Assembly (NCBI GenBank): GCA_944391215.1
Contig: CALXSR010000010.1
Coordinates: 28,547 to 92,546, forward strand
From: an uncultured Clostridia bacterium
Lineage (GTDB): Bacteria > Bacillota > Dehalobacteriia > UBA4068 > CALXSR01
Direction of reading: 5' to 3'
DNA length: 64,000 nt
Position numbers and translations under genes: made by a program. This document shows positions 5,260 through 25,160 of the stretch, piece after piece. The notes beneath the pieces were generated by a model. It was not told the origin of the DNA, searched no databases, and was given only the letters and a program-made list of their open reading frames with translations. Position 1 is the stretch's first letter. Each line of letters starts with the position of its first letter.

Positions 5260-5362
5260 AAGTTTTCCTCCTTCCTTAAGAACGTTCATTCCCATCTAGC
5301 ATGGCAGAGGACCGTTCTGCTTTTGCACCTACAAACACGCAAATTATTATAACACAACTTTT

Positions 5363-6679
5363 TTACCAAGGCAAGGGCTGTCTGGAAAAATTCTCCCCCT
5401 GCAAGCGGTCAAGAATAATGGCAGCCGCGGAACGCACCGAAAGATGATTATACGGACCTTGCCCATAAATTGGCCGCAAATGAAAATCGCAAGAAGCAAT
5501 CATTTCATCTGTTAAGCCCCAGCCTGTTCCAAACAAAAGCAAATAATTGCCGCCTTTTTCTCGCATTTGTTTCCGCATGGTCGGATAATCCATCATTTTA
5601 TCATTTGGTTTGGCGCTCGTAGAAATAAGATATAATGGCGCATCGTTTTTTTGTTTTATTTCTATCAACGCTTCCGATAAATCAGCAATCAAACGAACGC
5701 AGGATACCGCTTCATGGCGGTCCGGATTATAAGCGCCGCCAAACCCATCCTGCCAATGGCCAATTAACTGTCCAATCAATGCTCTTTGACTTTCCCCCGG
5801 TTGCACAATAAAATAGTTTTCCACGCCAAAGGTTACCGCCGAGCGGGCAATATCATGCAAATCCAAATTGGTTAAAGAAGTATTGATAATTTGTTTCTTT
5901 TTATTATAAACCGGATAATGCAATAAGGCCACATATAATCGGTAAGGCTTTTCTTTCTCCTGCCTTACCTTTTGTAAATATACCATATCGTCTTGCGTTA
6001 AAGGGGCCTGTTCTAACAAATCCGGTCTTCTTTCCAAAGTCACCTTCAAACTTTCCTGTCGTCGATATTGGGCAATTTCTTTATGATTTCCGTTTAATAA
6101 AGGTTGCGGCACACTTTTCCCCCGAAATTCCGGCGGCCGAGTATATTGCGGATATTCCAATAAACCGGCGCTAAAACTTTCTTCCTCCGCCGATGCTTCA
6201 TCGCCTAAAACCCCAGGTATCAACCGAACAATACTTTCTACCATCGCCATCGTTGGAATTTCCCCGCCGGTTAATACAAAATCACCAATCGACAAAATAT
6301 CGGTAGCCAATTCTTCCTCTACTCTTTGATCAATGCCCTCATAATGTCCACATATAAAAATCAACTGCTCGGCTTCACGCAATTCCCGCGCTTTTTGTTG
6401 GGTAAAAAGTTCCCCCCGCGGGCTGGTAATAATAACACGCGTCTTCCCCTTTTTTTGCATACAATCTTCCACAGCGGCAAAAATAGGCTCCGGTTTCATT
6501 ACCATGCCAGCTCCACCGCCATATAAACGGTCATCCGTAATTTGATGTTTATCGGTTGTATAATCGCGAATATTCGTTATTTGAATTTCTGCCAATCCTT
6601 TATTTTGCGCCCTTTTCATCATACTTTCTTGCAAAGGGCCAAACATGGCTGGAAACAAAGTCAAAATATCAATACGCAT
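5363..6679 (-). CDS. trmD: tRNA (guanine37-N1)-methyltransferase TrmD fused in frame to a C-terminal second SPOUT-like methyltransferase domain
   Basis: Residues 1 to about 240 are TrmD (MRIDILTLFP...GGGAGMVM...GHYEGIDQR). Residues about 250 to 438 carry a separate knotted-methyltransferase-like tail ending LSVRSAAAIILDRL. Single uninterrupted ORF. Confidence 0.85.
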   Translation of the reverse strand: MRIDILTLFPAMFGPLQESMMKRAQNKGLAEIQITNIRDYTTDKHQITDDRLYGGGAGMVMKPEPIFAAVEDCMQKKGKTRVIITSPRGELFTQQKARELREAEQLIFICGHYEGIDQRVEEELATDILSIGDFVLTGGEIPTMAMVESIVRLIPGVLGDEASAEEESFSAGLLEYPQYTRPPEFRGKSVPQPLLNGNHKEIAQYRRQESLKVTLERRPDLLEQAPLTQDDMVYLQKVRQEKEKPYRLYVALLHYPVYNKKKQIINTSLTNLDLHDIARSAVTFGVENYFIVQPGESQRALIGQLIGHWQDGFGGAYNPDRHEAVSCVRLIADLSEALIEIKQKNDAPLYLISTSAKPNDKMMDYPTMRKQMREKGGNYLLLFGTGWGLTDEMIASCDFHLRPIYGQGPYNHLSVRSAAAIILDRLQGENFSRQPLPW

Positions 6680-7205: not shown

Positions 7206-8453
7206 TTATTCCGTTTTTTCTTGCGTCCGATACCGCAACGAAGCCTTTTGCGCGATTCGGAATACCATAAAAATAACAACTGCGATAGCAGCATAACATA
7301 ATAACATAAAACGATAACTTCCAGTTAAATCATAACTAAAATTTAATAATGGCGCCCCGCAGGCCACCCCGGCGGCCAGCGTTGCCAAAAAAATACCCAC
7401 TATGGTGGAATATCCTTTTAAACCAAATAAATCCGTTGCCAAAAAAGTAATAATTAAAGTTTCTAAAGGCAAAGAAAAGCCCAAAAGCAAGGCATAGGCA
7501 ATGGCCATCCATTCTGTTTTTGCAAAAGCCAAAAATAAAATTGCTGCCAAATAGGCAATAATGCAAATTAGCATACTGGTATGTAAATTCCATTTATCAT
7601 AAATCCAGCCAATACTTAATTTAGCAAAAGCCAAAGACAAATAAACCATACCGGAAATACCTGCCGCAAAGTGCACATCAAAACCCCTATCGGTTAAATG
7701 TGCCGGGGCGGAAAGTACAACCGGGTTGGTAATTAAACCAATTAAAAAAATAAGCAAAACAGTCAAATAAAAATATGGCTGATGAAAAGCCTCTTTGGCA
7801 CTTGAGCCCTGCCAATAGGCAGTTTTTGTGGTTTTCTCCTTGCTATTTTCCAATCCATAAGCAACCAGTCCCTTGTCTGCAGGATGATTACGAACCAATA
7901 ATAAAATCGGAACCATAGCACAAAGCATAATCATGCTAGATATCAAATAAGATTGTCGCCAACCCATATCGGCAATCCAGTTTCCTACCAACATATTAAA
8001 AAGAAAGCCCCCAACACCGCTGCCGGCAAAAATAAGACCTAAAATGGTTCCCCTATGTTTTGCAAACCAATTATTGATCAAGCTGGAAATTACGGCAGTA
8101 GAGGCAAAAGAAAATGCTGCCCCTAATAAAATACCGCCAACATAAAAAAGCGGTAATTGAGCGGCAATAGAAAATAAAAACATGGCGCCTGCAGCAAACA
8201 GCATTCCAATAGACATCATTTTATGCATACCAAAAATGCCCACCAGGAAACCAAAAGAGAGGTTTAAAATTACCGAAGTGACAGAGCGTAAACTATGCGT
8301 AATGGAATAAGCGCCTCGGGTAAATCCAAGCGACTCCGTAATTGGAGTCACATAAAGACCATTTGGAGAATTTCCTAAGCCCAATAAAACAAAAGAGCTA
8401 ATAAAACAGGCTAAAACCACAAACCACCCATAAAAAACCTTTTTTTGTTTCAT
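7206..8453 (-). CDS. MFS transporter, 12 TM, oxalate/formate-antiporter-like; substrate unknown
   Basis: 415 aa polytopic protein of MFS architecture. Lies between the KH-domain gene and rimM inside the rpsP operon. Confidence 0.8.
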   Translation of the reverse strand: MKQKKVFYGWFVVLACFISSFVLLGLGNSPNGLYVTPITESLGFTRGAYSITHSLRSVTSVILNLSFGFLVGIFGMHKMMSIGMLFAAGAMFLFSIAAQLPLFYVGGILLGAAFSFASTAVISSLINNWFAKHRGTILGLIFAGSGVGGFLFNMLVGNWIADMGWRQSYLISSMIMLCAMVPILLLVRNHPADKGLVAYGLENSKEKTTKTAYWQGSSAKEAFHQPYFYLTVLLIFLIGLITNPVVLSAPAHLTDRGFDVHFAAGISGMVYLSLAFAKLSIGWIYDKWNLHTSMLICIIAYLAAILFLAFAKTEWMAIAYALLLGFSLPLETLIITFLATDLFGLKGYSTIVGIFLATLAAGVACGAPLLNFSYDLTGSYRFMLLCYAAIAVVIFMVFRIAQKASLRYRTQEKTE

Positions 8454-9074: not shown

Positions 9075-10427
9075 CTAAAACGGTAATTTAAACATGCCCT
9101 TTTTCTTGCCTTTTTTCCCCATGGCCGCCGCTTGATTGCTCGCCATTTTCATCATCTTTTGGGTTTCAGCAAACTTCTTCAATAACCGATTTACATCCTG
9201 CACTTGGGTCCCGCTCCCTTGCGCGATTCTTCTTTTCCGGGAGGCATTGATCATATCCGGCTTAATTCTTTCCTCCTTGGTCATAGACTGAATAATCGCT
9301 TCCATACGGGAAAATTCCTTTTCATCCACTTGAATATTTTTTAGCTGTTTACCAATATTGCCCGGCATCATACTAATGATATCTTGAATATCGCCCATTT
9401 TCTTCATTTGTTCCAGTTGATCTAAAAAATCCTCAAAGGTAAAGCTGGCATTACGTATTTTGGCTTCCATTTCTAAAGCTTTTTTTTCATCAACCGCAAT
9501 TTGGGCCTTTTCAATTAAGGTTAAAACATCTCCCATGCCCAAAATACGGGAAGAAAGCCGATCGGGGTAAAAAGGCTCAATGGCGTCTAGTTTTTCCCCC
9601 TGCCCGACAAACTTAATGGGTTGCCCGGTCACCGCTTTTACAGAAAGAGCTGCCCCACCTCTGGTATCCCCATCTAATTTGGTTAATACTAAACCGGTAA
9701 TGCCCAAATCGGCATGAAACGCTTCCGCTACATTTACCGCATCCTGCCCCGCCATGGCATCCACTACCAGCAAAATTTCACTTGGATTTACTTCAGCCTT
9801 AATATTTTTTAGTTCCGCCATCAATTCTTCATTGACATGTAAACGCCCGGCAGTATCAATAAAAACAAAATCATTGCCATGCGTCCTGGCATGCGCCAAA
9901 GATTCTTTGGCAATACGCACTGGATCATTGCAACCATCCAAGCTAAAAACCGGGATTTCTGCATTTTCTCCTAAAACTTGCAATTGTTTAATGGCCGCAG
10001 GACGATAAATATCCGCCGCTACCAAAAGGGGTCTTCGGCCCTGCTTTTTCATTAAATTGGCTATTTTAGCGCTGCTTGTTGTTTTCCCAGAACCTTGCAA
10101 ACCAACCATCATTACCACGGTAGGCGGATGCGAAGATATATTTATTTTTGCCTGTTCCGGCCCCATTAAGGCAGTTAATTCTTCATGAACAATTTTAATA
10201 ACTTGTTGTCCGGGACTTAAACTTTCTAAAACATCGGCTCCCAAAGCTTTTTCTTTAATACGAGCCACAAAATCTTTTACTACTTTATAACTAACATCGG
10301 CTTCTAATAAGGCCAAACGAATTTCCCGCATGGCTTCGTTAATATCTGCTTCGCTCAAGCGCCCTTTGCCGGTTAGCTTTTTGAATGTTGCTTGTAATTT
10401 ATCCGCTAAATTTGCAAAAACTGCCAT
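9075..10427 (-). CDS. ffh: Signal recognition particle protein Ffh
   Basis: 450 aa with an SRP54 N domain, a GTPase domain (GLQGSGKTT, DTAGR, TKLDGD) and a Met-rich M domain. Confidence 0.95.
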   Translation of the reverse strand: MAVFANLADKLQATFKKLTGKGRLSEADINEAMREIRLALLEADVSYKVVKDFVARIKEKALGADVLESLSPGQQVIKIVHEELTALMGPEQAKINISSHPPTVVMMVGLQGSGKTTSSAKIANLMKKQGRRPLLVAADIYRPAAIKQLQVLGENAEIPVFSLDGCNDPVRIAKESLAHARTHGNDFVFIDTAGRLHVNEELMAELKNIKAEVNPSEILLVVDAMAGQDAVNVAEAFHADLGITGLVLTKLDGDTRGGAALSVKAVTGQPIKFVGQGEKLDAIEPFYPDRLSSRILGMGDVLTLIEKAQIAVDEKKALEMEAKIRNASFTFEDFLDQLEQMKKMGDIQDIISMMPGNIGKQLKNIQVDEKEFSRMEAIIQSMTKEERIKPDMINASRKRRIAQGSGTQVQDVNRLLKKFAETQKMMKMASNQAAAMGKKGKKKGMFKLPF

Positions 10428-10437
10428 TCTATCAGCC

Positions 10438-10794
10438 TCATTCTTCCACTATTTGCTCCAAAAGCCGCAACGCTTCTGGCAATTTCTCCATACTTTCTGC
10501 TTGCATTGCCTGTTCAATACAATGTTCTGCTTCCTTCACCAGTCTTTTTACCTGTAAAAACCGTTTTGCTAATCCTAATTTTTCTTCATAACCGTATAAT
10601 AATTTTTCGCTTTTTTTAATCGCATCATGCGCTGCCTGTCTGGTTATATGCAAAGAAGAAGCAATTTCCCCTAAAGAATAATCTTCCTCCAAAAAAAGAC
10701 TCATTGTTTCTCTTTGCCGGGCAGTAAGCAATTCCCCGTAAAAATCAAATAATAAAGTCAATTCTCCAATTTTTTCTACCAAACGGTTTTCCAT
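10438..10794 (-). CDS. ylxM: YlxM/UPF0122 putative helix-turn-helix protein preceding ffh
   Basis: Start re-called to ATG 10794 with an AGGAGA RBS. The sigma-70 region-4-like motif LTARQRE...SLGEIASSLHITRQAAHDAIK is typical of the YlxM family. Confidence 0.75.
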   Translation of the reverse strand: MENRLVEKIGELTLLFDFYGELLTARQRETMSLFLEEDYSLGEIASSLHITRQAAHDAIKKSEKLLYGYEEKLGLAKRFLQVKRLVKEAEHCIEQAMQAESMEKLPEALRLLEQIVEE

Positions 10795-10821
10795 TTTTCT
10801 TCTCCTATCAAGTAAAAAAAC

Positions 10822-10866
10822 TTGACAGAGCCTATTATAATAAAAACAACAGGCTCTGTCAAGCAA
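10822..10866 (-). promoter_or_regulatory. Consensus sigma-A promoter embedded in a perfect 12-bp inverted repeat (candidate operator, possibly also the mtaD terminator)
   Basis: Minus strand: TTGACA, 17 nt, TATAAT. The inverted repeat TTGACAGAGCCT, 17 nt, AGGCTCTGTCAA has one arm on the -35 box and one across the +1 region. On the minus strand the stem is followed by GTTTTTTTA. Confidence 0.6.
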
Positions 10867-10892
10867 AATAACTTGATATTACTTCTTATATT

Positions 10893-12188
10893 TTATGCCA
10901 ATATCCTAGGAAAACGGTTGTAACATTCAAAACGAATACGCTCTGTGTCCAATGTTTTCATTTCTCTTTTTTCCATAATGATTTTACCATTGATAATCAC
11001 GCTTTGCACATCGGATCCTTGCGCTGAATACACCAAATGAGATATCAAATCATAAGGCGGTAAAAAGTGCGGCTGCTTACAATCCAGCAAAATAAAATCA
11101 GCCAAATTACCTTTTTGTAAAACACCTGCCTGTGGAAAACCAAGATAAGAAAAAGCATCTCTGGTCGCCATCGTCAAAGCTTGTTCTGCAGGTATGGCCA
11201 AAGGATTATACAGCCGTCCTTTCGCCAACAAACTACCCTGACGCATTTCCAAAAATAAGTTTAAATCATTATTGCTACAAGCGCCATCCGTACCAAAACC
11301 CAGGCCCACATTTTTTTGTAACAGCTCATAGCTTTTAGCCATGCCGTTGCCCAATTTTAAATTACTGCGCGGACAATGCGCTATTTTCACTCCGTATTGG
11401 GCTAAAATATTCTCATCTTCTTCTGTTAGCCATACAGCATGCGCTGCTATCGTCGGATTATCAAAACAACCTAATTCTGCTAAATAGGCGGTTGGGGTAG
11501 TTCCGTGTTTTTTCCTGCAATCATCAAATTCCTGCTTAGTCTCAGCTAAATGAATATGCAGCATGGTTTGATATTTTTGAGCAATTTCACTGATCTTTCG
11601 TAATAGCATTTCACTGCATGTATAAATCGCATGCGGGGCAAAGGCTACCTGAATACGGCCATGATCCGCTCCATGCCAATTTTGATACAAAGCAATATTT
11701 TCAGCCAATCTCTCATTCCCATCTTGCCAATCACCTACAATCCCACGGCTTAAAACAGCCCGCAGTCCGGACTGATCCACCGCCTGCGCAATTTCATCTA
11801 CAAAAAAATACATATCATTACAGCAGGTGGTTCCGCTTTCTATCATTTCCCATAAAGCCAACTGGGTAGCCCAAAGAATATCTTCCGCCTGCCATCTATC
11901 TTCAGCCGGATACACTCTTGTTTCCAACCACTTTTGCAATGGCAAATCATCCCCGTAACTGCGCAAATAACTCATGGGCAAATGGGTATGCATATTCACC
12001 AAACCAGGCATAACCAAATAATCTTGGCCTTCTATAACCTTCCGCGCTTCGCAATTTATATTTGGTTCAATAGCGGCAATTCTTTGTCCTTCTACTGCAA
12101 TATCAGCAATAAAAGGTTTACGCAAACTTCCATCAGGCGTGGTTTCCATAGAAAGTATGGTAGCTTGCCGAACTAAAATATCATACAT
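10893..12188 (-). CDS. mtaD: 5-methylthioadenosine/S-adenosylhomocysteine deaminase (amidohydrolase superfamily)
   Basis: 431 aa with the HTHLPMS metal-binding motif. Family assignment from typical MtaD/TRZ-ATZ amidohydrolase features. Confidence 0.8.
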   Translation of the reverse strand: MYDILVRQATILSMETTPDGSLRKPFIADIAVEGQRIAAIEPNINCEARKVIEGQDYLVMPGLVNMHTHLPMSYLRSYGDDLPLQKWLETRVYPAEDRWQAEDILWATQLALWEMIESGTTCCNDMYFFVDEIAQAVDQSGLRAVLSRGIVGDWQDGNERLAENIALYQNWHGADHGRIQVAFAPHAIYTCSEMLLRKISEIAQKYQTMLHIHLAETKQEFDDCRKKHGTTPTAYLAELGCFDNPTIAAHAVWLTEEDENILAQYGVKIAHCPRSNLKLGNGMAKSYELLQKNVGLGFGTDGACSNNDLNLFLEMRQGSLLAKGRLYNPLAIPAEQALTMATRDAFSYLGFPQAGVLQKGNLADFILLDCKQPHFLPPYDLISHLVYSAQGSDVQSVIINGKIIMEKREMKTLDTERIRFECYNRFPRILA

Positions 12189-12195
12189 ACTTTTC

Positions 12196-12963
12196 CTACC
12201 TTCCGCAACAAGGGCTATGTTGTATCATTTGCATATCCGGGATAGCCCGGGCGATTATTTTCAATACTTTTTCTTTATTGGCTGCAAAAATAGATTCTAC
12301 TTCCTGATGCGCCAAATGATCTAACAATCCAGCTCCATAATTGGTAATTAAGGATATATTCGCAAAGCAAATACCCAATTCTCTTAACAAAACCGCCTCC
12401 GTAGCGGCAGTCATGCCCACCACATCGCCCCCCAAGCGATCAAACATTTGAATTTCCGCTGCCGTTTCAAAACGCGGGCCCTCGGTACAGACATAAGTCC
12501 CATAAGGCACCACCAAAATCCCTTCTTTGGCAGCCGCTTGCAATAAACAAGTACGCAATTCTTCACAAAAAGGGAAACTAATATCCGTATGCACCACCCG
12601 GCCATCGTCCCCGTCAAAAAAGGTAAAAGGGCGTGCTTTGGTAAAATCCAAAAACTGATCGCATAGTACAATCGTACCGGGATGTTGATTGCGCCGCAAG
12701 CCGCCTACTGCATTCACTCCTATCGCTTTGTCTACCCCTAACTGTTGCAGGGCCATCATATTTGCTCGATAGGGAATCGCATGCGGCGGAATATGGTGAT
12801 CTTTCCCATGACGCATCAAAAGAATAATCTCCGTACCATCCGGCATAGAAACAGGCACATAATTTACTTCCCCATATGCAGTTTCAATCGTCATTTCTTC
12901 ATCGGTTTGGAATATTTCGCTACCGTCAAAACCTGTCCCGGCAATCAAGGCAATTTTACCCAT
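12196..12963 (-). CDS. mtnP: S-methyl-5'-thioadenosine phosphorylase (PNP/MTAP family)
   Basis: MGKIALIAGTGFD N-terminus, PNP/MTAP-type fold motifs. Adjacent to mtaD. Confidence 0.7.
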   Translation of the reverse strand: MGKIALIAGTGFDGSEIFQTDEEMTIETAYGEVNYVPVSMPDGTEIILLMRHGKDHHIPPHAIPYRANMMALQQLGVDKAIGVNAVGGLRRNQHPGTIVLCDQFLDFTKARPFTFFDGDDGRVVHTDISFPFCEELRTCLLQAAAKEGILVVPYGTYVCTEGPRFETAAEIQMFDRLGGDVVGMTAATEAVLLRELGICFANISLITNYGAGLLDHLAHQEVESIFAANKEKVLKIIARAIPDMQMIQHSPCCGR

Positions 12964-12977
12964 AAACCCATCCCCTT

Positions 12978-13892
12978 TTAATTAAAAAGCGCCTGCACAA
13001 AATCAGCAGAAGAAAAAGGTTGCAAATCCTCGCTTGCCTCGCCAACCCCAATCCATTTCACAGGGATTTGCAATTCATTTTTAATCCCAATTATCACACC
13101 GCCTTTGGCAGTACCATCCAACTTGGTTAAAATCAAACCATTTAAAGGAACCACTTCTTTAAAAAGTTGCGCCTGGGAAATTGCATTTTGCCCAGTACCA
13201 GCATCTAAAACCAAAAGAAAATCTTTTTTTGCTTCTGGCAACTCCCTTCCTACAATACGGCCTATTTTACCCAACTCGTTCATTAAATTGGTTTTATTTT
13301 GCAGTCGTCCAGCGGTATCAATCAATAAAAGATCAATACCCCGGGCCTGCGCTGCTTTACAAGCGTCAAAAACAACCGCCCCCGGATCAGCTCCTTCTTG
13401 GTGTCTAATAATCGGAACTTTTGCTCTTTCCGCCCATACCGCCAATTGATCGATTGCTGCCGCCCGAAATGTATCCGCTGCCGCCAACATCACCTTTAAG
13501 CCTTCTTTTTGAAAACGATCAGCCATTTTACCAATGGTAGTCGTTTTACCGGCCCCATTCACACCAGTTACCATATAAACTTGTAATATGCCTTTTTGCG
13601 GCATAAAACCGTTTTCTTCCCCAGCGCTTAGTATCGCAATAATTTCTTGTTTCAGTAATTCTTTTAATTCTGCCGCTTCTTTTACCTTTTTTTCTTTTGC
13701 CAAAGAACGTAATTTTTCCACCAATTCTAAAGAAGTTTTTACCCCTACATCAGCCTGAATCAAACCTTCTTCTAATTCTTCAAATAGTTCTTCATCAATA
13801 CGGCGACCTAAAGTAAAAACCCCCATCACCTTATCGCCTAAATTTTGTCTAGTTTTACTCACTCCATTTTTCAAATTCTGAAAGAAACCCAT
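12978..13892 (-). CDS. ftsY: Signal recognition particle receptor FtsY
   Basis: 304 aa with an SRP GTPase domain (GVNGAGKTTT, DTAGR, TKLDG). Confidence 0.9.
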   Translation of the reverse strand: MGFFQNLKNGVSKTRQNLGDKVMGVFTLGRRIDEELFEELEEGLIQADVGVKTSLELVEKLRSLAKEKKVKEAAELKELLKQEIIAILSAGEENGFMPQKGILQVYMVTGVNGAGKTTTIGKMADRFQKEGLKVMLAAADTFRAAAIDQLAVWAERAKVPIIRHQEGADPGAVVFDACKAAQARGIDLLLIDTAGRLQNKTNLMNELGKIGRIVGRELPEAKKDFLLVLDAGTGQNAISQAQLFKEVVPLNGLILTKLDGTAKGGVIIGIKNELQIPVKWIGVGEASEDLQPFSSADFVQALFN

Positions 13893-24554: not shown

Positions 24555-25106
24555 CTATTCTTTGTCAAATTTAAAATCTTTTAAAACAGCCCAACGCGGG
24601 TCTATTTGTTCTTCCGCGCAATGGCATTCTTTCTCGTTCAAGTCAATTCCGCAATGCGGGCAAAGCCCTTTGCAATCTGGCTGACATAAAAAACGCATCG
24701 GCAAATTCAAATAAATTTGCTTCACCAGCATTTCTAAAACATCAATCGAATCACCACTAAAGAAATAAATTTCTTTATCCTCTTCATTTTCAGCTTCCCA
24801 AACATCTTGCCGGTTGGTAAAGCTTTCCTCAATATCCAATGTCAGCCCATAAGGAAATTCTTTCAGGCAACGATCGCATTGTACCAGTAAATCCACTTGT
24901 AAATGCCCTTTTACCTGTAAAAATTTACCTAAATTTTCAATTTCCCCGTTAAAAGAAAGCGGCCCTTTCAATTTTAAATCTTCATAACCAAAATCGCTTT
25001 CTTTTAATTCATATTGCAAGGAAAAATCCTGTTTTTTACCGGCGGCAATTTTTACTTTGCCTACATTGATCAACATGTCAGTTTCTCCGTAAATGCGGTT
25101 TTGCAC
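24555..25106 (-). CDS. yceD: DUF177/YceD family protein (23S rRNA accumulation protein)
   Basis: CDRCL...CPHCGIDLNEKECHC cysteine pairs typical of YceD. Immediately upstream of rpmF. The true start may be the internal MLINVGK. Confidence 0.8.
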   Translation of the reverse strand: MQNRIYGETDMLINVGKVKIAAGKKQDFSLQYELKESDFGYEDLKLKGPLSFNGEIENLGKFLQVKGHLQVDLLVQCDRCLKEFPYGLTLDIEESFTNRQDVWEAENEEDKEIYFFSGDSIDVLEMLVKQIYLNLPMRFLCQPDCKGLCPHCGIDLNEKECHCAEEQIDPRWAVLKDFKFDKE

Positions 25107-25160
25107 CAGTTTTTACAATACTATTTATTATACAAATGTTTTAAGCCCCTGTCAAATGCT

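Follow-up and report, generated by a model that had tools for sequence, protein, structure and literature searches.

Overlapping promoter, terminator-like hairpin and candidate operator palindromes upstream of ylxM-ffh in an uncultured Clostridia bacterium and other Firmicutes

Conserved in Firmicutes and Mollicutes, YlxM is also essential to the minimal cell JCVI-syn3A. There is dispute over its role, the protein being regarded either as a putative DNA-binding protein or as an accessory factor for the signal recognition particle (SRP). In Bacillus subtilis, promoter P1 upstream of ylxM was mapped together with P2 and P3 (rplS), and growth-rate and (p)ppGpp effects on the ylxM-rplS operon were described without a specific factor (PMC10100781). 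In Mycoplasma pneumoniae, overexpression of YlxM (MPN424) represses a single operon, mpn656-660 (Yus et al. 2019, PMC6721554). KorA, a dimeric repressor acting on symmetric operators, has been noted to resemble structure 1xsv (PMC2665229). The element considered here lies in the gap between mtaD and ylxM, on the minus strand of a 64,000-nucleotide (nt) stretch of DNA from an uncultured Clostridia bacterium (contig CALXSR010000010.1), referred to below as the window. It is read as a composite in which a promoter, two operator palindromes and a terminator are superimposed, a reading that we rate as slightly better than even. Promoters, terminators, operators and autoregulation are themselves known kinds; what appears new is a phylum-wide candidate YlxM box and a recurring architecture in which a terminator is built on an operator. 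No description of the palindrome, or of an operator at any of the three genes ylxM, ffh and rpsP, was found in the literature searched.

Read on the minus strand, the element contains TTGACAGAGCCT (5′ arm, 10862..10851), 17 nt and AGGCTCTGTCAA (3′ arm, 10833..10822), which form an exact inverted repeat. This perfect 12-base-pair (bp) repeat had been reported in a first-pass annotation of the same DNA, where its start was correctly put at 10822 but its end at 10866, which is 4 nt too long; the true span is 10822-10862. The textbook promoter that had been claimed inside it was likewise recovered. It consists of TTGACA (10862..10857), contained in the 5′ arm, a 17-nt spacer and TATAAT (10839..10834), and scores 12 out of 12, being the sole promoter with that score within 4-18 kb and one of two across the window. 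Relatives, referred to by locus number (L001 and so on), carry a consensus promoter at the same position, and both hexamers are invariant in L086 and L087. The complete intergenic layout on the minus strand is TATCAAG TTATTTTG C-TTGACA-GAGCCTGTTGTTTTTAT-TATAAT-AGGCTC TGTCAAG TTTTTTTA CTTGATA GGAGAAGAAAAATG. A divergent or second promoter based on the additional -35-like hexamers was rejected following sequence inspection, no -10 being found at the proper distance on either side.

At 8 places the window has a perfect inverted repeat of 12 bp or more whose loop does not exceed 30 nt, which is more than expected by chance (0.17 hits per window in 30 Markov shuffles). Apart from the present repeat, most of these resemble terminators. 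A search of the window for other copies of the whole repeat or of its 12-mer half-site, proposed in the first-pass annotation, returned none besides the two arms; allowing up to 2 mismatches, the 12-mer gave 6 matches against 3.5 expected.

Two copies of another symmetric motif flank the promoter core. These palindromes share the form TGT[A/C/T]AAG-N7/8-CTT[T/G/A]ACA, measure 22 bp in the window, and have half-sites that are -35-like hexamers (TTGACA or TTTACA). Site I (TATCAAG-TTATTTTG-CTTGACA, 10857..10878, minus strand) has as its right half the -35 hexamer and the preceding C, and is present in L086. Site II (TGTCAAG-TTTTTTTA-CTTGATA, 10806..10827, minus strand) is nearly identical in L086 and L087. 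As it starts 6 nt after the -10 hexamer (10834..10839), site II would cover the predicted start site (~10827-10826) as well as the leader's initial ~20 nt. The window contains only two matches to the motif when up to 1 mismatch is allowed, both at the ylxM promoter, with 0.5 expected in 64 kb.

CTTGACA, which forms the right half of site I, is the reverse complement of TGTCAAG, the left half of site II contained in the 3′ arm (10822..10833), and this accounts for the outer 7 bp of the repeat arms. Originally, the two 12-bp arms, 17 bp apart, had been taken as half-sites of one dimeric repressor operator bracketing the promoter. They are perfectly symmetric, with one placed on the -35 hexamer and the other on +1. 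In L086 and L087, however, only TTGACAG(A) / (T)CTGTCAA is retained while the inner 5 bp (AGCCT/AGGCT) change, so that conservation upstream of ylxM in relatives holds for the outer 7 bp of the arms and fails for the inner 5 bp. Each conserved part moreover has its own inverted partner 8 nt away, and the two parts are also found separately, as counted below. The centre-to-centre distance of 29 bp and the non-conserved core are not typical of a dimer, and the window lacks further copies of the arms. A single operator made of the two arms is highly improbable; the halves belong to two palindromes that occur independently.

Conservation of the palindromes was examined in 80 loci anchored on Ffh, in which the best promoter upstream of ylxM was compared together with its surroundings; 77 of these loci were classified. 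Five genomes were added (Cohnella candidum, Bacillus cereus, Bacillus methanolicus, Pelotomaculum and Anaerosalibacter). A TTGACA-17-TATAAT-like promoter was found in almost all Ffh-anchored loci, the best one scoring 9-12 out of 12 in 75 of the 77 listed and 8 out of 12 in L046 and L078. At least one palindrome accompanies the ylxM promoter in 74/77 loci and in 5/5 added genomes. Of the 77 loci, 28 have both sites, 27 have site II alone, 19 have site I alone and 3 have neither, giving totals of 47 for the site I type and 55 for the site II type. A spacer of 8 nt separates the half-sites in 72 cases and one of 7 nt in 25, and site II starts 5-9 nt past the -10 hexamer in 48 of the 55 loci that have it.

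The motif is also specific. With at most 1 mismatch, 97 matches were found in the 659 kb of the 80 loci, 88 of them within 200 nt upstream of ylxM. Five of the remaining 9 are perfect copies of TGTAAAGAAAAAACACTTTACA located between ffh and rpsP in Carnobacteriaceae, where TTTACA serves as the -35 hexamer of a TTTACA-17-TAATAT promoter, and one further match of this type precedes rplS. Perfect copies of site I and site II are present at ylxM in C. candidum, B. cereus and B. methanolicus, the latter two having a further perfect palindrome, of the site I type, at the promoter of rpsP; in Pelotomaculum and Anaerosalibacter, site II is found at ylxM. In Carnobacteriaceae and Bacillus, the rpsP promoter has its -35 within a perfect TGT[A/T]AAG-N8-CTTTACA, as does an rplS promoter in one Carnobacterium (L046, L060, L061, L063 and L078, about 5445-5490; L091, 7713-7734; L092, 7724-7745; L061, 7463-7484). 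The palindromes at rpsP and rplS promoters suggest a small regulon. A high-GC locus that does not contain ylxM showed no motif. By these comparisons the candidate element is phylum-wide (Bacilli, Clostridia, Negativicutes) and essentially limited to ylxM-ffh, rpsP and rplS promoters.

In the window, the same nucleotides form a terminator-like hairpin (10814..10864, minus strand), comprising 19 pairs and a 7-nt loop (10864..10820) followed directly by U7 (10820..10814); this U-tract coincides with the spacer of site II. Of the 19 pairs, which are obtained only when G.U is allowed, 7 are G-C. The predicted RNA fold has an energy of -39.8 kcal/mol (z = -7.6 to -10; 0/200 shuffles as good), and hairpin plus T7 is the top terminator-like site in 14 kb (4-18 kb). 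It begins at 10864, shortly past the stop codon of the co-directional mtaD gene (10895-10893). The proposal that the stem followed by GTTTTTTTA acts as terminator of mtaD agrees with this intrinsic-terminator anatomy and with the persistence of the structure in relatives. A hairpin running from the -35 to just beyond the -10 and followed by a U-rich tract is kept in the window, L086, L087, L002 and L004, with differing inner sequences. The inner stem reads GAGCCT / AGGCTC in the window, consists of 7 bp, a mismatch and 3 bp in L086, and is TTGACAGAT / ATCTGTCAA in L087, with one G-C to T-A double change. Alignment of the window, L086 and L087 leaves GCTTGACAGA, TATAATA and CTGTCAAGTTTTTTT-CTTGATAGGAG as invariant blocks. 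The comparison of retained structure with changing sequence was made on a small sample (L086, L087, L002, L004).

Because structure is kept while sequence drifts, and because the hairpin with its U-tract lies 28 nt past a stop codon, the repeat is read mainly as a lineage-specific hairpin that behaves as an intrinsic terminator and would stop transcription in vivo. Only RNA reading through from mtaD would be able to form it, since the 5′ arm is located upstream of the predicted start site. Terminator-like hairpins built on the palindromes were detected at 25/81 loci: in 14, site I is extended outward with the U-tract in the promoter spacer, in 6 site II is extended, 4 are of the window type and 1 lies upstream of the promoter. 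To judge from these loci, terminators seem to have been seeded repeatedly by the palindromes, wherever the end of a co-directional gene is near. In six Clostridia loci (L030, L031, L037, L050, L041 and L090), site II is extended outward to a 12-14 bp stem followed by a T-rich stretch, between the promoter and ylxM, and the predicted start site falls within the 5′ arm of that stem. The logic of a terminator visible only to read-through RNA seems to apply to these extended stems as well.

With such hairpins at 25 loci and the top-ranking terminator-like site in the window itself, the element could in principle be no more than a terminator and a strong promoter overlapping in a short gap. The CTTGAYA words would then be by-products of the hairpin, any hairpin that includes the -35 needing a left arm complementary to TTGACA. 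We consider this distinctly unlikely. Palindromes are found without any terminator-like hairpin at 56/81 loci, and B. cereus has a separate ftsY terminator upstream, yet carries perfect sites I and II. Sequence and spacing of site II are kept from Bacilli to Clostridia and Negativicutes in a way that terminators are not, and the motif is essentially restricted to ylxM, rpsP and rplS promoters.

A second rival places the palindromes at the level of RNA. Site II begins at ~+1 and would lie at the extreme 5′ end of the mRNA; a transcript begun at the promoter could fold there into a hairpin of 7 bp (GUCAAGU/ACUUGAU), so that an RNA role has to be considered. Such a 5′-terminal stem-loop of the ylxM-ffh mRNA would serve as a stabiliser against 5′-end-dependent RNases, or as a site for an RNA-binding autoregulator (YlxM, Ffh, S16 or KhpA). 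Two patterns speak for pairing. At position 4 in Clostridia, A-T is exchanged for C-G in both half-sites (25 against 16 loci, with only 4 mixed), and G.U combinations (11) outnumber A.C combinations (4), although the excess is modest. YlxM has also been reported to bind SRP RNA (PMC8546722).

Combinations that would break an RNA stem are nevertheless common. In Bacillus and Cohnella, TGTAAAG..CTTAACA would set A against A halfway along a 7-bp stem, and in Anaerovoracaceae T stands opposite G, C and T at position 3, resulting in U.U or U.C. The left half of site I varies between C, A and T opposite the fixed G of the -35. As site I, the same motif recurs upstream of the predicted start site with the -35 hexamer for its fixed right half, rpsP promoters included, and the left arm in L011 starts 1 nt past the -10 and would escape transcription. 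What is conserved across classes is the stem sequence itself, beyond mere pairing. Rfam searches of the element, the window and 11 loci, made both at gathering score and with E values of up to 10, gave no relevant family, the best E-value matches on the element being spurious miRNA and snoRNA models. An RNA element is thus rather unlikely. All of these observations are accounted for by a DNA site that is symmetric and degenerate at its fourth position, and the sequence patterns clearly favour DNA sites over an RNA stem.

YlxM is the leading candidate for a protein acting on such sites. Its gene lies directly downstream of the palindromes in every lineage, and the motif travels with ylxM in the lineages examined. 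The protein matches Pfam UPF0122 at 1.5e-25 and, below threshold, Sigma70_r4 at 1e-4. Using its AlphaFold2 (AF2) model (pLDDT 95.7), the nearest solved folds were YlxM crystal structures, followed by '-35 promoter binding domains' of several sigma factors and then by KorA and helix-turn-helix (HTH) proteins of the GerE/NarL type. Aligned by eye, the recognition helix (S/T)RQ(G/A)(V/A)xD corresponds to TRERIRQ of sigma region 4.2. The model therefore supports a sigma-4 / KorA-like fold. Residue x of this helix was compared with position 4 of the half-site: H goes mostly with TGTCAAG, R or Y with TGTAAAG, in few independent lineages and with phylogenetic confounding.

Most plausibly, then, YlxM would control its own operon, and autoregulation is taken as the leading model. 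Given that the palindromes are DNA operators, the chances that YlxM is what binds them are about equal either way. The original suggestion of operator-like control and autoregulation by YlxM survives in altered form: the palindromes conserved at the ylxM promoter give operator-like control genuine support from comparison, whereas the two 12-bp arms drop out as the operator, and YlxM enters as candidate binder.

Another conserved Firmicute regulator could use the palindromes as DNA operators instead, the motif by itself leaving the protein unidentified. The correlation between helix and motif is imperfect, and YlxM gave no chromatin immunoprecipitation (ChIP) peak in M. pneumoniae. Still, the motif accompanies ylxM in every lineage examined, and -35-like half-sites suit a sigma-domain-4 fold. 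Overexpression of YlxM in Mycoplasma represses only mpn656-660, which we take to be the rpsP operon. To our knowledge none of the familiar Firmicute motifs (cre, Rex, TnrA/GlnR, CodY, Spo0A box, CtsR, BirA, NtcA-like) fits TGTHAAG-N8-CTTDACA, and this too speaks against a different regulator. We regard that alternative as fairly unlikely.

Several further observations weigh against the composite reading or against YlxM as its binder. The loop of the strict 12-bp stem is 17 nt, which is long for a terminator, and falls to 7 nt only when G.U pairs are counted. L087 lacks site I, and with as many as 2 mismatches allowed no site II was detected in L001-L004 or L007, so neither site is indispensable. 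The centres of the half-sites are 14-15 bp apart, ~1.5 helical turns, which is atypical for a simple HTH dimer. Exceptions to the helix-motif correlation are L090, L071 and L008. In the M. pneumoniae study, only 6/10 putative transcription factors gave ChIP-seq peaks and YlxM was not among them (PMC6721554), and in work on Streptococcus mutans cited in PMC8546722, YlxM is regarded as an accessory protein to SRP, binding both Ffh and small cytoplasmic RNA.

The composite would work as follows. A consensus sigma-A promoter would drive ylxM-ffh-rpsP and later genes, with the two 7-N8-7 palindromes flanking its core as operators. Protein on site I, the right half of which is the -35, would compete with sigma region 4, and protein on site II (+1 to about +22) would block open-complex formation or promoter escape. 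With YlxM as the likeliest binder, the outcome would be negative autoregulation of an operon for SRP and ribosome maturation. In the lineage of the window, site I's right half and site II's left half, which are complementary, would have been lengthened inward by complementary bases peculiar to that lineage, giving a hairpin of 19 bp with the T-rich site II spacer doubling as its U-tract. Read-through transcripts from the inserted mtnP-mtaD genes would hold both arms and terminate, and transcripts begun at the ylxM promoter would lack the 5′ arm and pass.

More broadly, YlxM may, besides serving as an SRP accessory protein, be a sigma-domain-4-like autorepressor that acts on inverted -35-like hexamers (TGTHAAG-N8-CTTDACA) at the -35 and +1 of ylxM-ffh and rpsP(-rimM-trmD-rplS) promoters throughout Firmicutes and Mollicutes, its palindromes being repeatedly co-opted as seeds of terminators that would halt read-through from upstream genes and go unseen by transcripts begun at the promoter. 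To this generalisation we give somewhat less than an even chance. A candidate operator that recurs across the phylum at ylxM and rpsP promoters makes the dispute over YlxM testable, and offers specialists in SRP and ribosome biogenesis a concrete and easily tested proposal for what the protein binds. If true, it would explain feedback control of the operon for SRP, S16, RimM, TrmD and L19, couple SRP capacity to expression of ribosome-maturation genes, and provide a possible mechanism for the growth-rate regulation in B. subtilis that has no known factor (PMC10100781). Placing a terminator over the promoter would allow one short gap to stop transcription from inserted upstream genes and to fire a strong promoter.

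The window has a G+C content of 40%. On its minus strand the gene order is an smc-like gene, ftsY (12978-13892), mtnP (12196-12963), mtaD (10893-12188; amidohydrolase / MTA-SAH deaminase family, with its stop codon 28 nt ahead of the hairpin), the element, ylxM (10438-10794; UPF0122, sigma-region-4-like HTH, ATG at 10794), ffh (9075-10427; SRP54 homologue), rpsP, a KH/KhpA gene, an MFS transporter gene, rimM, a long trmD and rplS, ylxM thus heading a ylxM-ffh-rpsP-khpA-(MFS)-rimM-trmD-rplS array. The Shine-Dalgarno sequence AGGAG of ylxM (10806..10802, minus strand) overlaps the last base of site II. Synteny in L087 equals that of the window, including mtnP-mtaD between ftsY and ylxM. In L001 mtaD alone is inserted, and in Bacillus ftsY lies directly upstream of ylxM with its own terminator. 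Insertion of mtnP and mtaD, both genes of methylthioadenosine salvage, between ftsY and ylxM probably created the need for a terminator fused to the promoter.

Close relatives are few. In the collection of species-representative genomes, the nearest were Peptococcaceae-like metagenome-assembled genomes from gut and rumen, with an Ffh identity of just 71%. Among 5.8 billion sequences, the nearest YlxM proteins were 99% (L085), 74% (L086) and 60% (L087) identical; L085 is a 505-nt contig without the promoter. A metagenome scan with YlxM yielded 4 loci only, all distant. Because few close relatives were found, conservation of the inner stem at fine scale rests on very few sequences.

Some features of the operon and the window were recorded alongside. 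The MFS transporter gene (7206-8453, minus strand; bile-salt / lactate MFS-like), placed between the khpA-like KH gene and rimM, is not in L087. The trmD gene (5363-6679, minus strand) encodes 438 amino acids (aa), a TrmD domain with a C-terminal PF09936 (Methyltrn_RNA_4)-type domain, and this fusion is common to the window and L087 (6853-8169). Upstream of rplS (5296-5374, minus strand), a TTGCCT-17-TATAAT promoter with an extended TG is accompanied by a GAACGGTCCTCTGCC box, which resembles boxes ahead of rplS in Cohnella and Anaerosalibacter (L19-leader-like); a check of this region against Rfam gave no family at E up to 1. The second perfect TTGACA-17-TATAAT of the window (25127-25155, minus strand) lies just past the end of an ackA-like gene and upstream of a 183-aa open reading frame (24555-25106), and no ylxM-type palindrome was found at it. 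The sole Rfam match in the window at gathering score is a flavin mononucleotide (FMN) riboswitch, RF00050 (43300-43418, minus strand; 106.5 bits).

Several known systems invite comparison. In Bacillus, 5′-terminal stabiliser stem-loops such as those of the aprE and ermC leaders form a hairpin at or near the 5′ end, ahead of the Shine-Dalgarno sequence. They resemble site II in place; unlike site II, they are not known to show class-wide sequence conservation or to have a twin upstream of the promoter. Like intrinsic (Rho-independent) terminators situated over a downstream promoter, the hairpin has G-C pairs in its stem, leads into a U-tract, comes shortly past a stop codon and is conserved in structure only. 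It differs from them in that the -35 lies in the 5′ arm, most of the -10 in the 3′ arm and the predicted start site within the 3′ arm, and in that the stem is seeded by putative operator half-sites.

KorA of plasmid RP4 recognises a compact 12-bp palindromic operator (PMC2665229), whereas the half-sites described here are 7-8 bp apart. KorA is a global regulator of its plasmid, and sequence homology is lacking. The HTH fold type is common to YlxM and sigma-70 region 4, and the half-sites CTTGACA and CTTTACA are -35-like, one being the actual -35. Unlike sigma region 4, YlxM is a free-standing protein of 110-120 aa with long C-terminal helices; unlike sites for -35 recognition by sigma, those found here are inverted pairs, and association with RNA polymerase is not implied.

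YlxM of Mycoplasma belongs to the same protein family, and repression is involved in both cases, here as a proposal. The target genes would also correspond, as we take mpn656-660 to be rpsP-trmD-rplS, an identity that the paper text does not state. The Mycoplasma evidence is transcriptomic, from overexpression and without a ChIP peak, and as ylxM there lies outside the regulated operon, the regulation is not autoregulation. At the present locus, rpsP to rplS follow downstream of ylxM-ffh, and in Bacillus and Carnobacteriaceae rpsP has a site of its own.

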